A stretch of DNA of 64,000 nt from a bacterium (lineage in GTDB: Bacteria; Chloroflexota; Chloroflexia; Chloroflexales; Kallotenuaceae), in contig JADDQE010000117.1 in assembly GCA_016781525.1 (NCBI GenBank), positions 4,039 through 68,038 on the forward strand. Reading direction: 5' to 3'. The notes beneath the pieces are model-generated. The model did not search any database and was not told the DNA's origin. It was given only the letters and a program-made list of their open reading frames with translations. The position numbers were made by a program, and so were the translations under genes. This document shows, piece by piece, positions 3,925-54,751 of this stretch (its first letter is position 1; every line of letters starts with the position of its first letter).

Positions 3925-4899
3925 ATGACAAACTTAAAGACCCGCCGGCTTGGAAAAACCGGCATCGACGTGACGGAAATTGGGATGGGCTTGTGGGCGG
4001 CAGGCGGCGACGCCTGGGGGCCGACGGACGACCATGCGGTGCTAGAGGCAATTGAATATGCGCTTGAGGTCGGTATCAATTTTTATGACACTGCGGACGT
4101 TTATGGCTCGGGCCACAGCGAGGAGCTGCTGGGCCGGGCGATGCAAGGTCGCCGAGAGCGCTTCATTGTTGCCAGCAAGATCGGCTGGCAGAATTTTGAC
4201 CGGGATCGCAACCAGACGGCGTACGACACTGTGGAGAAGCTCATTGCGGGAGTGGAAAGCAACCTACGCCGGCTGCAAACCGACTACATCGACGTAATGC
4301 AAAGCCACATCGGCTATCGCGAGCCGACGATGGAAATTTTCCTTGAAGGCTTCCAGAAGCTGCAGGCGCAAGGGAAGATTCGCGCCTACGGGGTTAGCAC
4401 CAGCGACTTCGACTATCTCCAGCACTTCAACCACGACGGACACTGCTCGACCCTGCAGATTGACTACAGCCTCTTGAACCGTACACCTGAGGAAGAGATT
4501 TTTCCCTACTGCCAAGAGCACAACATCGGCGTGATCATCCGCGGGCCGCTCGCCATGGGGATTCTGACGGGTAAGTTCAACGCGGAGACGCAGTTTGCGG
4601 AAGGCGACTTCCGGCAAGCCTGGCAAAACGATCCTGAACAGCACGAGGTCTTTCACTCTGATCTGGAGAAAGTTGAGCGCTTGCGCACGTTGGCGAACGG
4701 ACGGAGTCTTGCCCAGCTCGCGATCCAGTTTGTTCTCGCCCACCCCGCCGTCTCGACGGTAATCCCAGGTGCGAAGAGCACGGAGCAGCTCCGCGAGACG
4801 GTCGCCGCCGGAGCGTTGCCGCCGTTGACTGAGCATGAGCTCGCCGAGATCGCAGCTATAACTCCGGTTGGCGGTGGCCGCAAGATTTGGCCAGCTTAA
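3925..4899 (+). CDS. aldo/keto reductase
   Basis: MTNLKTRRLGKTGIDVTEIGMGLW.. N-terminus and full-length AKR-like sequence; start moved to ATG 3925 behind GAAGGGA. Confidence 0.85.
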   Translation: MTNLKTRRLGKTGIDVTEIGMGLWAAGGDAWGPTDDHAVLEAIEYALEVGINFYDTADVYGSGHSEELLGRAMQGRRERFIVASKIGWQNFDRDRNQTAYDTVEKLIAGVESNLRRLQTDYIDVMQSHIGYREPTMEIFLEGFQKLQAQGKIRAYGVSTSDFDYLQHFNHDGHCSTLQIDYSLLNRTPEEEIFPYCQEHNIGVIIRGPLAMGILTGKFNAETQFAEGDFRQAWQNDPEQHEVFHSDLEKVERLRTLANGRSLAQLAIQFVLAHPAVSTVIPGAKSTEQLRETVAAGALPPLTEHELAEIAAITPVGGGRKIWPA

Positions 4900-28495: not shown

Positions 28496-30781
28496 CTAGT
28501 GGGAGGCTGGCAGCACCGGTGCCCTGCGTAGGGAGCTAACAACTGTCCGAATCGCGTCAAGCGTAAATGGCTTCTCGATCACCGCGCTTACGCCCAAGGC
28601 CTGAACTCGCTCGATCTGTCGTGCATCGGCATGGCCCGTGACCACGACCTGCAACGCCTCGGGTACGCGCTGCTTTGCCCGCTGGAGAAGCGTCACACCA
28701 TCCATCTCAGGCATCATCAGATCTGCAAAGATAACGTCGACCGGCGCCTGGCTGATCGCCTCGAGGGCCTTGACCGGCTCGGTGAACCACTCCGCCGCGT
28801 GACCCTCCTTCGTTAAAAGGCCGTGTAATGATTTGGCAATCAACGGCTCGTCGTCCACAATGATCATGCGGAGGGGCTCAAGCTGCGCTTGCGGTGCCAG
28901 CACGACTTCAGCTGGTGCTGCCTTGAGGGGGAGCCTGATGGTCATCGTCGTGCCACGACCTTCTTCGCTCTCGATATCAATCGTTCCATCATGTTCGGCG
29001 ATAATGCCATAGGAGATGGCGAGCCCAAGCCCTGATCCGCCGTGGAGTTTGCCATCGTTTGAGGTCTTCGTGCTCACAAAGGGTTCGAATATTCGATCCC
29101 GAACGTGACTGGGAATACCACAGCCGGTGTCACCGACTGCAAGTCGAATATGTTCCGCTTCCTCAGCTAGCTCGATGGTGAGCACGCCGCCCGTGGGCGT
29201 CATAGCGTCGATTGCGTTGGTGACCAGGTTGAGCATCACTTGAGCTAGCGTGCCAATATCGCAGAGCACCGGGCGTACCGGCGTGATACGCTGCTCGACT
29301 CGGATATTTCCGCGGCGAAACTCTGCCTGAAGCATCGATAAGACGGGGTCGATCGCGCTCCGTAGATCGGCGGGCTCCCGTTTTGGCTCCAAGTGCCGCG
29401 CGAAGGTGAGCAGGCCACGTGTGATGCTACCGCCATGCTGAGCCGACTTTGCCACGGTATCAAGAGCTGATCGATAACCGCCGGGCTCGTCCTCGAGCAG
29501 GGCGAGCTGTGAGATACCACTTATGCCGGCGAGGAGGTTATTGAACTCGTGCGCGACGCCCGCAGCCAGCGTACCGATAGCTGCCAGCCGCTCCGACTGC
29601 ACGACCCGAACTTGCGATGATTTAAGCTTGGTGATGAGGCGTGCCTGGTAAATAGCAAGCGCGGCTTGAGCCGCGAAGGTCTCGATAAGCCGCTCGCCTT
29701 GCTCGTCCAGCGTAAACGTGCTGTCGGTCACAAGCACCATGCAGCCGACGACATCGTCCGGTGTTACAAGTGGCACCAGCATGACAGGCTGCCCGGTCAT
29801 GACCTTGCGCACAAATTCATGGTCTAGGTGGACAAGCCTCCGTGCTTCACAAACACGCCGAAGATTAAGGCTCCAATCGCGGATTGGCAGCTCGGGAGTA
29901 CACGTCCCTCTTGAAACAACCTGATCCTGCTCATTGCCCTCGCCCCACAGCAAGACACTTGAATGCGTGACGGGAAAGACTTCCATGATGTATTTCATCA
30001 TGGTGTCGATCTGACTGTGGATATCCACGGATGAGAGCAGCGACGTCGTCGCTTCATGAATTTGCCGTTGCTGCTGGGTAAGACGTCGGGAAGCTTCTTG
30101 CTCGTTGATAAGACCGGCATGTACGGCGAATGAGTGTTGAATGGCGACGAGCGGCAGCAGACCTACAAAGAAAAGCCAAGGATTGGCCTGCCACATCCAT
30201 GCCAGCATTAGACCGTAGGGAAGTAGCGACAGGTCGTAGGAACTAAAAACCGTTACGGCATCACGCCATCCTCTAAGAATTTTCTCCCCAGTCGCAACCG
30301 CAATCAGCACTCCCATGATTGTTGTTGCCAGAATAAAATAAAGCGACAGCACAGAAAGAATGCGGAGAAGATCAGCGGAATCAATAAAGGAGAGTGAATA
30401 GATGCCGAGTTCATGAGCAAGTAAAGCGGGTAAGCCTGCTGTTATAGTCCTGTGCGCAGCATTAAAAAGCGTCTTGTACCACGTTCTGCGGAGATATATA
30501 TCAGAGGCGAGACTACCGCCGCTTGTAATGATAATGGTCGCGGAAGGAGGAAAAATAAAGATAGAAGCGACTGCGATAGCCGTACTAACGGTCTGTGTAA
30601 CGTTTTGGTTATATCTGATCGGCTTGAATTCGGTTAAGCACACCAGGAGACAGAACAAGCCCGCTGCCAGATAGTCATTCGGTAGTAGCGGCCTTATGCC
30701 CGAAACCATAATCAGGACAGCAATAGCGCATATCCAGATGGTTACTACGTACCACTTAAGCGCTGCAGGTAAATCTTGCAT
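28496..30781 (-). CDS. hybrid sensor histidine kinase (multi-TM sensor, GAF-like, HisKA, HATPase_c, C-terminal receiver)
   Basis: H-box AAGVAHEFNNLL, N/G boxes (NLVTNAIDA, DTGCGI, GGSGLGLAI), receiver IIVDDEP..FADLMMPEMDG..KPF. Confidence 0.85.
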   Translation of the reverse strand: MQDLPAALKWYVVTIWICAIAVLIMVSGIRPLLPNDYLAAGLFCLLVCLTEFKPIRYNQNVTQTVSTAIAVASIFIFPPSATIIITSGGSLASDIYLRRTWYKTLFNAAHRTITAGLPALLAHELGIYSLSFIDSADLLRILSVLSLYFILATTIMGVLIAVATGEKILRGWRDAVTVFSSYDLSLLPYGLMLAWMWQANPWLFFVGLLPLVAIQHSFAVHAGLINEQEASRRLTQQQRQIHEATTSLLSSVDIHSQIDTMMKYIMEVFPVTHSSVLLWGEGNEQDQVVSRGTCTPELPIRDWSLNLRRVCEARRLVHLDHEFVRKVMTGQPVMLVPLVTPDDVVGCMVLVTDSTFTLDEQGERLIETFAAQAALAIYQARLITKLKSSQVRVVQSERLAAIGTLAAGVAHEFNNLLAGISGISQLALLEDEPGGYRSALDTVAKSAQHGGSITRGLLTFARHLEPKREPADLRSAIDPVLSMLQAEFRRGNIRVEQRITPVRPVLCDIGTLAQVMLNLVTNAIDAMTPTGGVLTIELAEEAEHIRLAVGDTGCGIPSHVRDRIFEPFVSTKTSNDGKLHGGSGLGLAISYGIIAEHDGTIDIESEEGRGTTMTIRLPLKAAPAEVVLAPQAQLEPLRMIIVDDEPLIAKSLHGLLTKEGHAAEWFTEPVKALEAISQAPVDVIFADLMMPEMDGVTLLQRAKQRVPEALQVVVTGHADARQIERVQALGVSAVIEKPFTLDAIRTVVSSLRRAPVLPASH

Positions 30782-31039
30782 AAAATGTTTTCACTGCTAT
30801 CTACGGGTGAGGGATCAGTAGATAGAACGGCACTCGTGTAAAAAAGGTTCGGCTATCTTTCAATGTTCGTTAAATGGGGCTCGTCCACGGCTTTGATTGC
30901 GGCGTCTTGAACGCTTCGTGCAGCTTCAAGATAAAGCAGAACTTTGCTTTACCATCAGAGGGCTGTTTATTAGAGAGCCCCTTGCTCAAACATTTACCCT
31001 AAGGGAGTTGCTCTGGCTAGTACACCTTAGCGCATTTTG

Positions 31040-32641
31040 CTATCTTTGTGATGATAGTGAGTAGTACTTCTGTCCCGTGGTGATGCCGCCTGCCGTCAGC
31101 GAGGATCTGCACACAAGCCCGATTCCAACGAATGCAACGCCGATCAACGTCAGCACTGTTGAAACTCTCCCTTGTCCAATACCGGTCAATAGGGCTCCAA
31201 GCGCAAATCCAAGGCCCGCCGCAGTACCATAAACGCTTACGACACGTCCTAACACCTCGCGAGGCGTTTGCTCTTGTAATACCGTGCGAATACTGGCGAA
31301 AATTAGACTGTTCGCCGCGCCGGTGAGCCACACAAAAGGCAACGCGAGGAAGAGAAGGGTGGTCCAGGGACCGCTGTTAGGGATTGGAGATGATAAATTA
31401 GCATACTGGCCGAGCACCGGCACCAACCCTTGTAATATTAAGGCCAGCCCATTGAGGAGGATGCCATACCATAGAAGGGCCGCACGAGGTACGTGCTGAC
31501 CCCATCGGCCAAGTGCCAGAACTCCAGATGCAATACCAAAGACCATTACCCCTTCAAGCACCGGGAAGCCTATGTCTTCCGTACTTCCAAGCGCCTCAAT
31601 CACATAGGGTAGCTGAAGCGTATTGAATAAGGATATGAGCAGGGGCATGATCAGGCTAAGCATGACAATCTTACGCACCAAGGGCAGCTGCCGGACGGCG
31701 TTTAGACCTTCAACAATGTCACTTAAGATTGAGGCGTCACCTTTTACTTCGCGAGCAATATACTGTGTGCGCACATGGAGTAGCAGGAGGGCGGATACAA
31801 AAAAGGTTACGGCATCGATGAGGAACGCTCCTGATGTACCCAGGAAGACGAGCGCGAACGCAGCCAACGGGTAGCTTGCCAACTCTGCAAAGGTCGTCGT
31901 TGCCTGATCGAGTGAGTTGGCTGCAAGCAGCTCTGACTCTTCTACGACATCGGCCAAGATGGCAACCCGCGCAGGATTGAACATCTCACGTACAAGGGCG
32001 GCTGCAAAATTAATAAGATAAATAGCGGCAAGCTTGATAGGCAGTGTTAACGGGAAGGTTACGAGCGCAAGCAGCACAAGTACGAGAAGCCCATTTGCGA
32101 CGTCCGCAGCGATCATCGTACGGCGCGGATTCCAGCGATCAACTAACGCACCGGCGATGAGGCCAAAGAACAATGATGCAACCAGGGATGAAAAGGCAGC
32201 CAACCCCAGCTGAGTATAGGAACTCGTCAAACTAAAAACGTATATCGGGAGCGCAATTCGTGTAAAGTAGCTACCAAACGTGGATATTGCTTCGCCCAGC
32301 CACAACCACCGGAAGTTCGGATTCCGTAGCAATGACCGGTAGGTCACGACGTGCGTCGTAGGTGGCACTACTTCCGGATTTTCGCTAGATTGGCCGAGGG
32401 ATTGGCTTTGGCCAAGTAAAGCTTGACCTGCGGCTTTCCAGCTATTGTCTGTCACCCCTTGTACAGTTGGAGAGGGCTCGATATCTCCGGCTAGCGCTCG
32501 TACCTGTTGGTGGCCATTCCAAATTGCACGACATCCTCCACACAGCGCCAAATGAAACCCGAGCTCTGGATTGCCTTTGCGCGGTGTACCAGGTTGGGCT
32601 CCCTCACCGAGGAGCGAGCGCGCTTGAACACATGTCATCAT
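31040..32641 (-). CDS. MFS transporter (MFS_3/EntS-like) with in-frame N-terminal zf-HC2 anti-sigma-like domain
   Basis: N-terminus MMTCVQARSLL..HLALCGGCRAIW (C..H-x3-C-x2-C); from about residue 100 YRSLLRNPNFRWLWLGEAIS.. and about 12 hydrophobic helices. Confidence 0.75.
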   Translation of the reverse strand: MMTCVQARSLLGEGAQPGTPRKGNPELGFHLALCGGCRAIWNGHQQVRALAGDIEPSPTVQGVTDNSWKAAGQALLGQSQSLGQSSENPEVVPPTTHVVTYRSLLRNPNFRWLWLGEAISTFGSYFTRIALPIYVFSLTSSYTQLGLAAFSSLVASLFFGLIAGALVDRWNPRRTMIAADVANGLLVLVLLALVTFPLTLPIKLAAIYLINFAAALVREMFNPARVAILADVVEESELLAANSLDQATTTFAELASYPLAAFALVFLGTSGAFLIDAVTFFVSALLLLHVRTQYIAREVKGDASILSDIVEGLNAVRQLPLVRKIVMLSLIMPLLISLFNTLQLPYVIEALGSTEDIGFPVLEGVMVFGIASGVLALGRWGQHVPRAALLWYGILLNGLALILQGLVPVLGQYANLSSPIPNSGPWTTLLFLALPFVWLTGAANSLIFASIRTVLQEQTPREVLGRVVSVYGTAAGLGFALGALLTGIGQGRVSTVLTLIGVAFVGIGLVCRSSLTAGGITTGQKYYSLSSQR

Positions 32642-32824
32642 ATTGTAGGTGACCTTTCACAGGTAGCACAAGCAGGAAAGACCTATTTATTTACAGAACG
32701 CCTTCAATCACCGGGGCGTAGTTCATCGAAAGGGTACTGACGGGGCCTGGAACGGGCGTCATCGTGACCAGCATCCCTTGTAGTTAAGGGTGGCATGCGA
32801 TGAGGTCTAACCAGAAGGAAAAAG

Positions 32825-33061: not shown

Positions 33062-33733
33062 CTATGCGACAACCAGCCGTGAGGCTGGAGCATGCTGCTG
33101 ATCGGGAAGCCAGCCAGCCAACCGTCGGTTGGTAGCCGCAAGAACGGAGCGGGCTGCCGCCTCGGCAACGCTGCTCCGTACAAATGTTGTTCCAAGGACG
33201 TGCTCCAGGGCCATATCCTGGTACGTCACGTAGGTAGTAATTACTTCGCGCGCGCCAAAGGTCGTGCATTGAACACCCGCGAGCTCCAAGGGTGCCTGCG
33301 GAGCAAACATGCCGTTGAGGGCTGCAACGGTTGCTTTAGCCGCCGCCTCAGCTGTATCTGGGCCAACGACGCAGCGCCCTGTGTAACGCTGCTGGCCGTT
33401 GAGCAAGTCGACCTCGATGTAGGTGCCGTCTGGCTGCTGAACTTGTTCGACACGGTCGAGGCTAACGCGGTCGACGGTTGCGCCTTCCGCAAGCTGCACG
33501 AGGCTGATGCGGCGATAATCGATACGGTAGTTAAACCGCACCACGAGCACACTCTCGATGTCGCGAACGATCTTTTTAAGGGCTCGGCGTGGGGAAGCAA
33601 TAATATGTACTTCGCCGATATCGGTATCGCTGGCCCGTAGGATGCGGGCGCCGCGGACTCCGGGGACGGTTAGCAAGGTTTCTTCGATCATTGTTGTGTC
33701 GGGCAAGGACACAACATCAGCGCGCTTCGCCAT
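33062..33733 (-). CDS. hypothetical protein with internal tandem repeat, no family recognised
   Basis: 223-aa ORF, GGAGACC SD; repeats TAEAAAKATVAALN / VAEAAARSVLAATN. Confidence 0.55.
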   Translation of the reverse strand: MAKRADVVSLPDTTMIEETLLTVPGVRGARILRASDTDIGEVHIIASPRRALKKIVRDIESVLVVRFNYRIDYRRISLVQLAEGATVDRVSLDRVEQVQQPDGTYIEVDLLNGQQRYTGRCVVGPDTAEAAAKATVAALNGMFAPQAPLELAGVQCTTFGAREVITTYVTYQDMALEHVLGTTFVRSSVAEAAARSVLAATNRRLAGWLPDQQHAPASRLVVA

Positions 33734-35217: not shown

Positions 35218-35670
35218 TTAGATGCTACACTGCATCGAAATCGCTTGCAACCAGCCATCGATCTCAGAGGCATTGGGTAAGAGAGTGACGTCGGCACTTA
35301 ACCACTGGTGGTACAGAGCACCGTATCGATCGCAGGCAAAGATACCCGCGCTTGCCGCTTGCGGCAAGAATCGCTCTCGGACACGTCCGTTGGGGTCGAC
35401 CAGGACAGTGAAAGGCAGCGCTCCCAAAGCACCCGCCGTATCCTCACTAGGTACGACGACGATACCGCGCGCCGGTAGCTGCTTCCACTCGTCCGCGTGC
35501 ATGGCAAGGCTGTGCAGGTACGCTTCGGGCTGTGCAGCGGGGCCGAAGATCATGAGCAACAGATGGTCACGCCCGCGCCGCTTCGCCAAATTATGCGTCT
35601 CGCCGTACTTATCCAGCAACGTAAACAGCGGCACGGGTTTATGCAGCGGCAGCTTGGGTTCAAGATCCAT
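35218..35670 (-). CDS. thioredoxin-fold (AhpC/TSA/BCP-like) protein lacking the peroxidatic Cys
   Basis: redoxin-like layout (PLFTLLDKYGE..LLLMIFGP..VVVPSED..PFTVLVDPNG) but GPAAQPEA where the CxxC/PxxxTxxC site would be. Confidence 0.6.
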   Translation of the reverse strand: MDLEPKLPLHKPVPLFTLLDKYGETHNLAKRRGRDHLLLMIFGPAAQPEAYLHSLAMHADEWKQLPARGIVVVPSEDTAGALGALPFTVLVDPNGRVRERFLPQAASAGIFACDRYGALYHQWLSADVTLLPNASEIDGWLQAISMQCSI

Positions 35671-54271: not shown

Positions 54272-54323
54272 AGAGCCGAGAACCAAGCATAGAGATCAAA
54301 GAACCAACCTTTGTTGGCTCTGC
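54272..54323. repeat. heptamer array (AGAGCCG AGAACCA AGCATAG AGATCAA AGAACCA) inside hairpin GCAGAGCC..GGCTCTGC
   Basis: AG at 54272, 54279, 54286, 54293, 54300 (period 7); arms at 54270-77 and 54316-23. Confidence 0.55.
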
Positions 54324-54355
54324 GGCCTCTACCCTTTATTCGGGAAGGAATGCGT

Positions 54356-54751
54356 ATGAACTATTTGACCCAAAACGATATCCTTGATCTGCATACGCTT
54401 GCGATTGAGCGCTACGGTGGACGCCTCGGCATCAAAAGCCAGGATAAACTGCAGGGCGTTATCGCAGCACCGCAGCAAATCTTTTTTGGGGCTGAGCTCT
54501 ACAGTGATGTTGCGAGTAAAGCCGCGGTTATTGGCTTCCAAATGCTGAAGAATCGGCCATTTCTTGCCGGCAATGAAGCGACCGCACTATTGGCAGTGCT
54601 GCGGTTTCTGGCGCTCAATGATGTGGCGCTGAACCCTCGGATGGCTGAGGAGGTAGCGGATCAACTCCACGCTGTACTGCGCTCCAACTTGGATCGTGAC
54701 GGTTTGGCGGATTGGCTGCGCGACCGGCTCGAGGTTGGGGTAAACGAGTAG
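54356..54751 (+). CDS. Doc (death-on-curing)/Fic-fold family protein with degenerate active-site motif
   Basis: MNYLTQNDILDLHTLAIERYGG.. Doc-type N-terminus; Fic motif position reads RPFLAGNEATAL instead of HxFxD(A/G)NKRTA. Confidence 0.7.
   Translation: MNYLTQNDILDLHTLAIERYGGRLGIKSQDKLQGVIAAPQQIFFGAELYSDVASKAAVIGFQMLKNRPFLAGNEATALLAVLRFLALNDVALNPRMAEEVADQLHAVLRSNLDRDGLADWLRDRLEVGVNE

Follow-up and report, generated by a model that had tools for sequence, protein, structure and literature searches.

A putative zf-HC2-like zinc head fused in frame to a 12-helix MFS transporter in a soil Chloroflexia bacterium

Introduction

Why should a transporter of the major facilitator superfamily (MFS) begin with a cysteine/histidine motif of the kind found in zinc-binding anti-sigma (ZAS) factors, and what could such a head do on the cytoplasmic side of the membrane? 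The question is raised by a gene, here called zf-MFS, on contig JADDQE010000117.1 of assembly GCA_016781525.1, from which we analysed a stretch of 64,000 nucleotides (positions 4,039 to 68,038; hereafter the window, whose own numbering is used throughout). The host is a soil Chloroflexia bacterium, the gene call in the public soil-metagenome assembly gives an identical 533-aa product, and the public data sets holding the sequence are DNA metagenomes only. An initial annotation, made from the sequence of the window, proposed that the gene joins a zf-HC2 anti-sigma-like N-terminus to an EntS-like transporter and that transport could be coupled to the release of a sigma factor encoded elsewhere. 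Here we find that the fusion is real and that its head, probably a divergent relative of zf-HC2, recurs across Chloroflexia, mainly on cell-wall ligases, at loci in which we detected no gene for an extracytoplasmic function (ECF) sigma factor.

Results

A single polypeptide

The open reading frame (ORF) of zf-MFS occupies positions 31040..32641 of the minus strand, with its stop codon at 31040-31042, and comprises a zinc module, a linker and an MFS transporter. Residues 1-51 (32489..32641, minus strand) form the divergent zf-HC2/ZAS-like module, delimited by predicted helices, invariant ligands and hidden Markov model (HMM) evidence; residues 52-99 (32345..32488, minus strand) form the linker, and residues 100-533 (31043..32344, minus strand) the MFS core with 12 transmembrane (TM) helices, DHA3- or MFS_3-like by Pfam and AlphaFold2 (AF2). 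The start is well defined: the context just 5' of the gene (32642..32659, minus strand) contains an in-frame TGA (32657-32659) which, read directly in the sequence, lies 15 nt from the ATG (32639-32641) and so fixes the start codon. The ATG position is shared by four of five orthologous zf-MFS loci, the fifth having been called 13 codons further upstream, and a purine-rich stretch (here GAAAGG, 32653-32658) stands just 5' of the start in all five.

We found 46 close homologues of the 533-aa protein (E < 1e-100), all of them from Chloroflexota where the source is named. The head is present in 17, two of which have truncated start calls, and the approximately 29 homologues that lack it have short, unrelated N-termini. 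Among the 15 full-length orthologues, mean pairwise identity is 65% in the module, 21% in the linker and 57% in the MFS part; the module has a constant length of 41 aa, the linker ranges from 59 to 108 aa, and the reading frame runs unbroken through these variable linkers in every case. That the frame is retained argues strongly for translation as a single polypeptide and for selection acting on the head. The zinc-motif module, linker and 12-TM transporter are thus fused in a single chain, and the identities suggest that purifying selection on the head is at least as strong as that on the transporter core. The linker, described in the initial annotation as Gln/Ser-rich and about 50 aa long, is rich in Gln, Ser and Pro and predicted to be disordered, both from orthologue comparison and from the AF2 model, in which the predicted local distance difference test (pLDDT) score is below 50 at residues 56-89. 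In a neighbour-joining tree of the transporter core, head-bearing proteins fall mostly into one clade, which indicates that the fusion is old.

The zinc-motif head and its relation to zf-HC2

The N-terminus reads MMTC(4)...H(30)LALC(34)GGC(37), with the spacing C4-x25-H30-x3-C34-x2-C37, so that an H-x3-C-x2-C motif is accompanied by an upstream ligand about 26 residues before the His, as in zf-HC2. The four candidate zinc ligands (C4, 32630-32632; H30, 32552-32554; C34, 32540-32542; C37, 32531-32533; minus strand) are invariant in 15 of 15 MFS-type orthologues and in all 60 aligned module sequences described below; the Cys/His motif, correctly recognised in the initial annotation, is therefore not a product of chance.

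Whether this motif belongs to zf-HC2 depends on the kind of evidence consulted, and that from the single sequence is weak. PF13490, the zf-HC2 model, gave no match even at E ≤ 10 with the whole protein, residues 1-103 or residues 1-54; support from zf-MFS by itself stays below every curated threshold; and the top PDB match of the predicted head in Foldseek, RsiW, is non-significant (E 0.52, TM-score 0.49). By direct evidence alone the zf-HC2 assignment would fall to the refuting condition named in the initial annotation, the lack of a significant zf-HC2 match; it rests on profile and transitive evidence, which rescues it. An HMM built from the 15 heads and run against 1.84e9 representative proteins recovered 50 proteins at E ≤ 1e-3, of which 48 were matched at or near the N-terminus (E 1.5e-8 to 9e-4). 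PF13490 matches 43 of the 60 aligned module sequences (best E 1.1e-6), and in one relative, P0128, its score of 27.9 bits exceeds the gathering cut-off of 22.2, with model positions 1-35 of 35 covered. The NCBIfam model NF052368 ('antisigmaE'), the only one to match the head of zf-MFS directly, matched each of the 15 MFS-type heads (best E 3e-5), but with scores of 17.7-23.8 bits it stayed under its cut-off, which is 50. When the head was aligned with RsiW (a sequence identical to 5WUQ chain C) in hhalign, residues 22-49 fell on residues 22-49 and H30, C34 and C37 coincided. A profile of the 60 sequences gave weak PDB matches to RslA (3hug_B, E 0.065), DdvA (8rlz_A, E 0.24) and RsiW (5wuq_C, E 0.69).

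The predicted fold agrees with this placement. AF2 places helices at residues 4-12, 25-33 and 35-51 of the full-length protein (pLDDT 70-95) and at 4-12, 25-33 and 35-50 when the head is modelled alone (pLDDT 83). In the predicted three-helix bundle the motif spans helices 2 and 3, with H30 closing helix 2 and C34 and C37 opening helix 3; a His at the end of helix 2 followed by CxxC at the start of helix 3 is the ZAS arrangement (PMC7406223). What stands of the zf-HC2 identity first proposed is thus kinship by profile, through relatives that match the family and through a register shared with RsiW, and not a match of zf-MFS itself. The head is, we conclude, a divergent, minimal member of the zf-HC2/ZAS fold family.

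Two further searches with the narrow alignment behaved differently. The alignment of 15 modules gave no matches in a word-index protein search, and in a PDB profile search it returned designed ankyrins only. Designed ankyrins (4GMR and 5EIL, E 0.008-0.016) also head the PDB matches of the broader profile; we rejected them as convergence on a short motif. This motif, ARxLLxxGxxPG, covers helix 1 and the following loop (residues 7-18; 32590-32623, minus strand) and resembles the ankyrin-repeat consensus; two long proteins, P0140 and P0156, were matched by the module HMM over this stretch only.

A head family across Chloroflexia

At the extreme N-terminus the heads share the consensus M-x-C-x-[EQ]-A-R-x-L-[LI]-x2-G-x2-P-G-x8-L-G-F-H-[LI]-x2-C-x2-C-R. 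From its invariant residues we built a degenerate DNA pattern, which was checked on the window and on known loci before being used for a genome scan: it matched the window once (32529-32632; none expected) and was found in 9 of the 13 MFS-, LCP- and LysM-type loci used for validation. Among 185,579 GTDB species genomes the pattern occurred at 60 loci, all in the class Chloroflexia (Roseiflexaceae, Chloroflexaceae, Herpetosiphonaceae, Oscillochloridaceae and Kouleothrix). Forty-eight of these loci carry complete genes and 12 truncated ones. The complete genes encode 46 LCP (LytR-CpsA-Psr) proteins, which are single-pass cell-wall ligases, one LysM protein and one MFS protein, the LCP and LysM domains being confirmed by Pfam. 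Both an MFS-type and an LCP-type gene (loci L033 and L060) occur in one metagenome-assembled genome (MAG), CMU.bins.106 of the Herpetosiphonaceae. The distribution argues that the head is a portable, lineage-specific cytoplasmic cap, mainly of single-pass LCP glycopolymer ligases, and that the MFS clade acquired it secondarily.

The two types differ just beyond the zinc motif. A stretch LLxxLL lies 8-14 residues past CxxC in 49 of 56 LCP/LysM-type proteins (for example P0124 and P0129; loci L014-L073), whereas only 3 of 17 MFS-type proteins have it, 33-40 residues past CxxC. This element may extend helix 3 or may be a short binding motif.

The surroundings of the LCP-type genes were also inspected. 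Their only recurrent real neighbour is a gene for a protein with SH3 and NlpC/P60 hydrolase domains, other clusters of neighbours being mostly shadow ORFs of high-GC DNA. This gene shares the locus in L012, L013, L018, L019, L022, L025, L028, L031, L049, L058, L063 and L066, often lies 3' of the LCP-type gene and stands directly downstream of it in L012 and L013, which points to a cell-wall context for LCP-type head genes. A PrsW protease, considered as a possible link to RsiW-type proteolysis, was adjacent once only (L009), and the idea was dropped.

The transporter

The remainder of the protein is a complete MFS transporter, as had been proposed. Pfam MFS_1 matches residues 113-483 (E 1.4e-32; 113.4 bits against a cut-off of 33.4) and MFS_3 residues 105-503 (E 4e-15; 55.6 bits against 27), and AF2, run with the 46-sequence alignment, predicts 12 TM helices (mean pLDDT 87) in two six-helix halves, with motif A (GALVDRWNPRR, residues 164-174) between TM2 and TM3 and its residues G164, D168 and R169 invariant. 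The best PDB match of this fold in Foldseek is MdfA (E 3.5e-8). The nearest group in NCBIfam is DHA3, represented by TIGR00900 (E 2.3e-51; 175.3 bits against 319.6), then EntS (69 bits against 324) and Mef (MefA, 55.9 against 675). All three scores lie far below the curated cut-offs, so that zf-MFS is not placed in any of these subfamilies and its substrate is not inferable. The predicted topology has 14 Lys and Arg residues facing inwards and 2 facing outwards, which, with motif A between TM2 and TM3, puts the N-terminus in the cytoplasm, where the proposed role of the head would require it; the C-terminal tail is cytoplasmic as well.

In two siblings from this MFS clade the cytoplasmic N-terminal head is of another kind, an XRE-type helix-turn-helix (P0029, locus L008:6001-7590, HTH_31 E 1.2e-3 and HTH_3 E 2.8e-3; P0005, HTH_25 E 0.15), and regulator-like heads seem to be a recurrent acquisition of the clade. 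GC content is reduced over the transporter gene and the spacer downstream of it (0.506 over 30001-32000, against approximately 0.55-0.62 in most of the window).

Sigma linkage and the fourth helix

Anti-sigma genes usually adjoin the gene of their cognate sigma factor (PMC7406223, PMC7826278), typically with the sigma gene directly upstream. The whole window yielded no ECF sigma gene when we applied Pfam to 20 mid-size ORFs, precomputed Pfam annotation within 10 kb on either side, and tblastn and phmmer with RpoE and SigW; the same was true of the five orthologous zf-MFS loci (8-10 kb flanks) and of the 60 genome loci, 46 of which include at least 1 kb of upstream sequence. Precomputed Pfam annotation was also used for the public-assembly loci. 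With the RpoE and SigW queries, tblastn and phmmer detected ECF sigma genes in 0 of 73 related loci. A positive control, RpoE against SigW, scored 1e-26 at the same database size. The lack of a neighbouring sigma gene noted at the outset is thus borne out.

In a class I anti-sigma domain, helix 1 contacts sigma-4, and helix 4, which follows a flexible linker, contacts sigma-2 (PMC7406223). Only the three-helix zinc bundle is predicted in zf-MFS. We found no conserved counterpart of the fourth helix: the approximately 50 residues that follow the bundle, residues 56-89 among them, are predicted to be disordered, the linker shows 21% identity, and LLxxLL is confined to 3 of the 17 MFS-type proteins. 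Because helix 4 and a linked sigma gene are both missing, we do not regard the head as half of a canonical ECF/anti-sigma pair. The suggestion that transport is coupled to sigma release has support from homology but not beyond it: 46 of the 48 complete head-bearing genes encode LCP proteins, none of the 73 loci showed an ECF sigma gene, and no fourth helix was found.

Gene neighbourhood

Around zf-MFS the gene order is conserved in five independent loci: a 150-aa protein, cysS, a 223-aa protein, zf-MFS, a hybrid histidine kinase and DUF5656. In the window, the 150-aa protein (35218-35670, minus strand) and the upstream 223-aa neighbour (33062..33733, minus strand) have no Pfam, NCBIfam or PDB match, and the kinase (28496..30781, minus strand), 258 bp downstream, is a multi-TM GAF-HisKA-HATPase-REC hybrid by Pfam. 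These neighbours are absent from LCP-type loci. We considered the 223-aa protein and the kinase as partners of the head and rejected both, as they are syntenic with the MFS type only and not with the module family. Rfam, promoter and terminator scans of the zf-MFS flanks gave nothing. Elsewhere in the window, and unrelated to the fusion, a 146-aa protein of the Fic/DOC family is encoded at 54311-54751 (plus strand; Pfam E 9.8e-14).

Discussion

The explanation that we favour, and to which we give slightly better than an even chance, is that the head acts as a zinc-stabilised cytoplasmic docking surface for a soluble partner, one that the cell's LCP and LysM proteins would share. A shared partner would tie the transporter into the same envelope regulatory or assembly circuit. 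The head is tethered to TM1 of the DHA3-like MFS by the flexible linker, which is about 50 aa long. Homology suggests one candidate partner, a sigma-70-family protein bound via helix 1. A partner-docking role of any kind is fairly probable, and that the partner is an unlinked sigma factor is doubtful.

Besides the direct scores given above, several considerations weigh against this explanation. The zinc ligands are candidates and the docking surface is putative. The conservation would be accounted for just as well by a head that autoinhibits or gates its own transporter and does nothing else. Finally, LCP, LysM and MFS proteins might share the head because it stabilises or targets them in a generic way, and not because they have a common partner.

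If zf-MFS were instead a true membrane anti-sigma factor, the head would sequester an ECF sigma encoded elsewhere until transport, a conformational change or proteolysis of the linker released it, making the protein a 'trigger transporter'. The homology and the ligand register with ZAS anti-sigma factors are consistent with this, as are the cytoplasmic N-terminus and the classic anti-sigma layout of the LCP/LysM relatives, in which a single TM helix separates the N-in head from an extracytoplasmic domain. Conservation is good in helix 1 (C-x-[EQ]-A-R-x-L-L), the sigma-4-contacting helix of class I domains, and the existence of orphan anti-sigma domains is presumed (PMC7406223). Yet helix 1 has just 9 residues, we found no conserved counterpart of helix 4, the sigma-2-binding helix that determines specificity, and no ECF sigma gene turned up in the window, the five orthologous loci or the 60 genome loci; moreover, the anti-sigma factors surveyed in the ECF classification, whose TM helices number 1, 2, 3, 4 or 6, include none with a 12-TM transporter (PMC7826278). 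We consider this rather unlikely, and a fuller version of it, with the head a working minimal anti-sigma domain, the MFS part the membrane sensor of an unlinked sigma whose release depends on transport or transporter conformation, and the LCP/LysM heads competing for that sigma or co-regulating it, less likely again.

An autoregulatory or sensory head would need no external partner: its zinc/thiol cluster might sense redox state or zinc, or the head might dock on its own transporter and so gate efflux. Soluble ZAS proteins are indeed thiol-zinc redox switches, whereas in membrane-bound ones such as RsiW the zinc is structural (PMC7406223). The flexible linker would let the head reach the cytoplasmic gate, and the conservation of the head matches that of the transporter; however, LCP and LysM proteins bear this head too, and since their functional domains lie outside the cell, past a single TM helix, it cannot gate them directly. 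This makes an autoregulatory head improbable. The fusion would be an annotation artefact if the module were a separate small product or untranslated and the transporter started internally near residue 95-100, where GTG codons do occur just before the MFS core; the close homologues without the module, with their short N-termini, fit such a start. Such an artefact is very improbable: the module is in frame, with no stop, in all 15 orthologues despite linkers that differ in length and sequence, it is more conserved than the transporter, and gene calls made independently agree on the fusion. A second, shorter isoform might nonetheless arise from an internal start. Among these possibilities we retain the docking head as the preferred reading.

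The architecture appears to be a combination of domains from known families that has not been described before. In the literature searched we found no description of a zf-HC2 head on an MFS transporter, or of zf-HC2 with LCP; a 2008 survey of LCP proteins mentions, for its Chloroflexi cluster, a 'short cytoplasmic domain' only (PMC2632651), and public records name the head-bearing proteins 'MFS transporter' or 'hypothetical protein'. Chloroflexia thus has a portable 41-residue zinc head on LCP ligases, LysM proteins and a transporter clade, none of them found linked to sigma genes. These heads might be orphan anti-sigma domains connecting envelope enzymes and a transporter to transcription, or the ZAS fold might have been put to a second use, as an all-purpose docking head in the cytoplasm. 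Either way, the interpretation of zf-HC2 annotations would be refined and a handle would be gained on envelope regulation in a poorly studied phylum; were the head a working anti-sigma domain, this single portable element would underlie an envelope-sensing network specific to Chloroflexia. In practical terms the finding is of moderate importance.

Comparison with known systems

Among known systems, RsiW, the anti-sigma-W factor of Bacillus subtilis (5WUQ/5WUR), resembles zf-MFS in having an N-terminal, cytoplasmic, membrane-tethered domain; the other class I ZAS (PF13490) comparators include RslA (3HUG) and DdvA (8RLZ). The RsiW ligands C3, H30, C34 and C37 are in register with C4, H30, C34 and C37 of zf-MFS, and the predicted positions of the His and of CxxC relative to helices 2 and 3 are alike. 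Unlike these anti-sigma factors, zf-MFS has a short helix 1 of 9 aa, which leads into a loop with the conserved sequence G-x2-P-G-[ST], and we found neither a conserved helix 4 nor an adjacent sigma gene; its membrane part is a 12-TM transporter and not one TM helix with an extracytoplasmic domain, and its sequence similarity to them is sub-threshold. With DHA3/MFS_3 transporters (TIGR00900, or 2A0121; the enterobactin exporter EntS; Mef macrolide efflux) it shares the 12-TM fold, motif A and its best family matches, but the matches to the EntS, Mef and TIGR00900 models never reach the first ~100 residues.

Control of transcription by polytopic membrane proteins has precedents: CarR and NrsF are multi-pass anti-sigma factors, and in LysP/CadC and the FecA-FecR-FecI relay trigger transporters control a transcription factor. 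Multi-pass anti-sigma factors fall into groups with 2-6 TM helices (PMC7826278), and zf-MFS would resemble them as a polytopic membrane protein if its head were to control a transcription factor. In those anti-sigma and trigger-transporter systems, however, the parts are separate proteins or smaller membrane domains and are genetically linked to the sigma factor or regulator, whereas zf-MFS is one chain with no linked regulator.

The LCP proteins of Chloroflexia (for example P0133 and P0124; cluster 'Ch' of PMC2632651) carry a homologous head (profile E 1e-8 to 1e-4), share the N-in topology and come from the same lineage, the two types even occurring in one MAG. They differ in what the head is attached to: in place of the 12-TM transporter, the LCP proteins have the conserved LLxxLL after CxxC, one TM helix and an extracellular LCP ligase.

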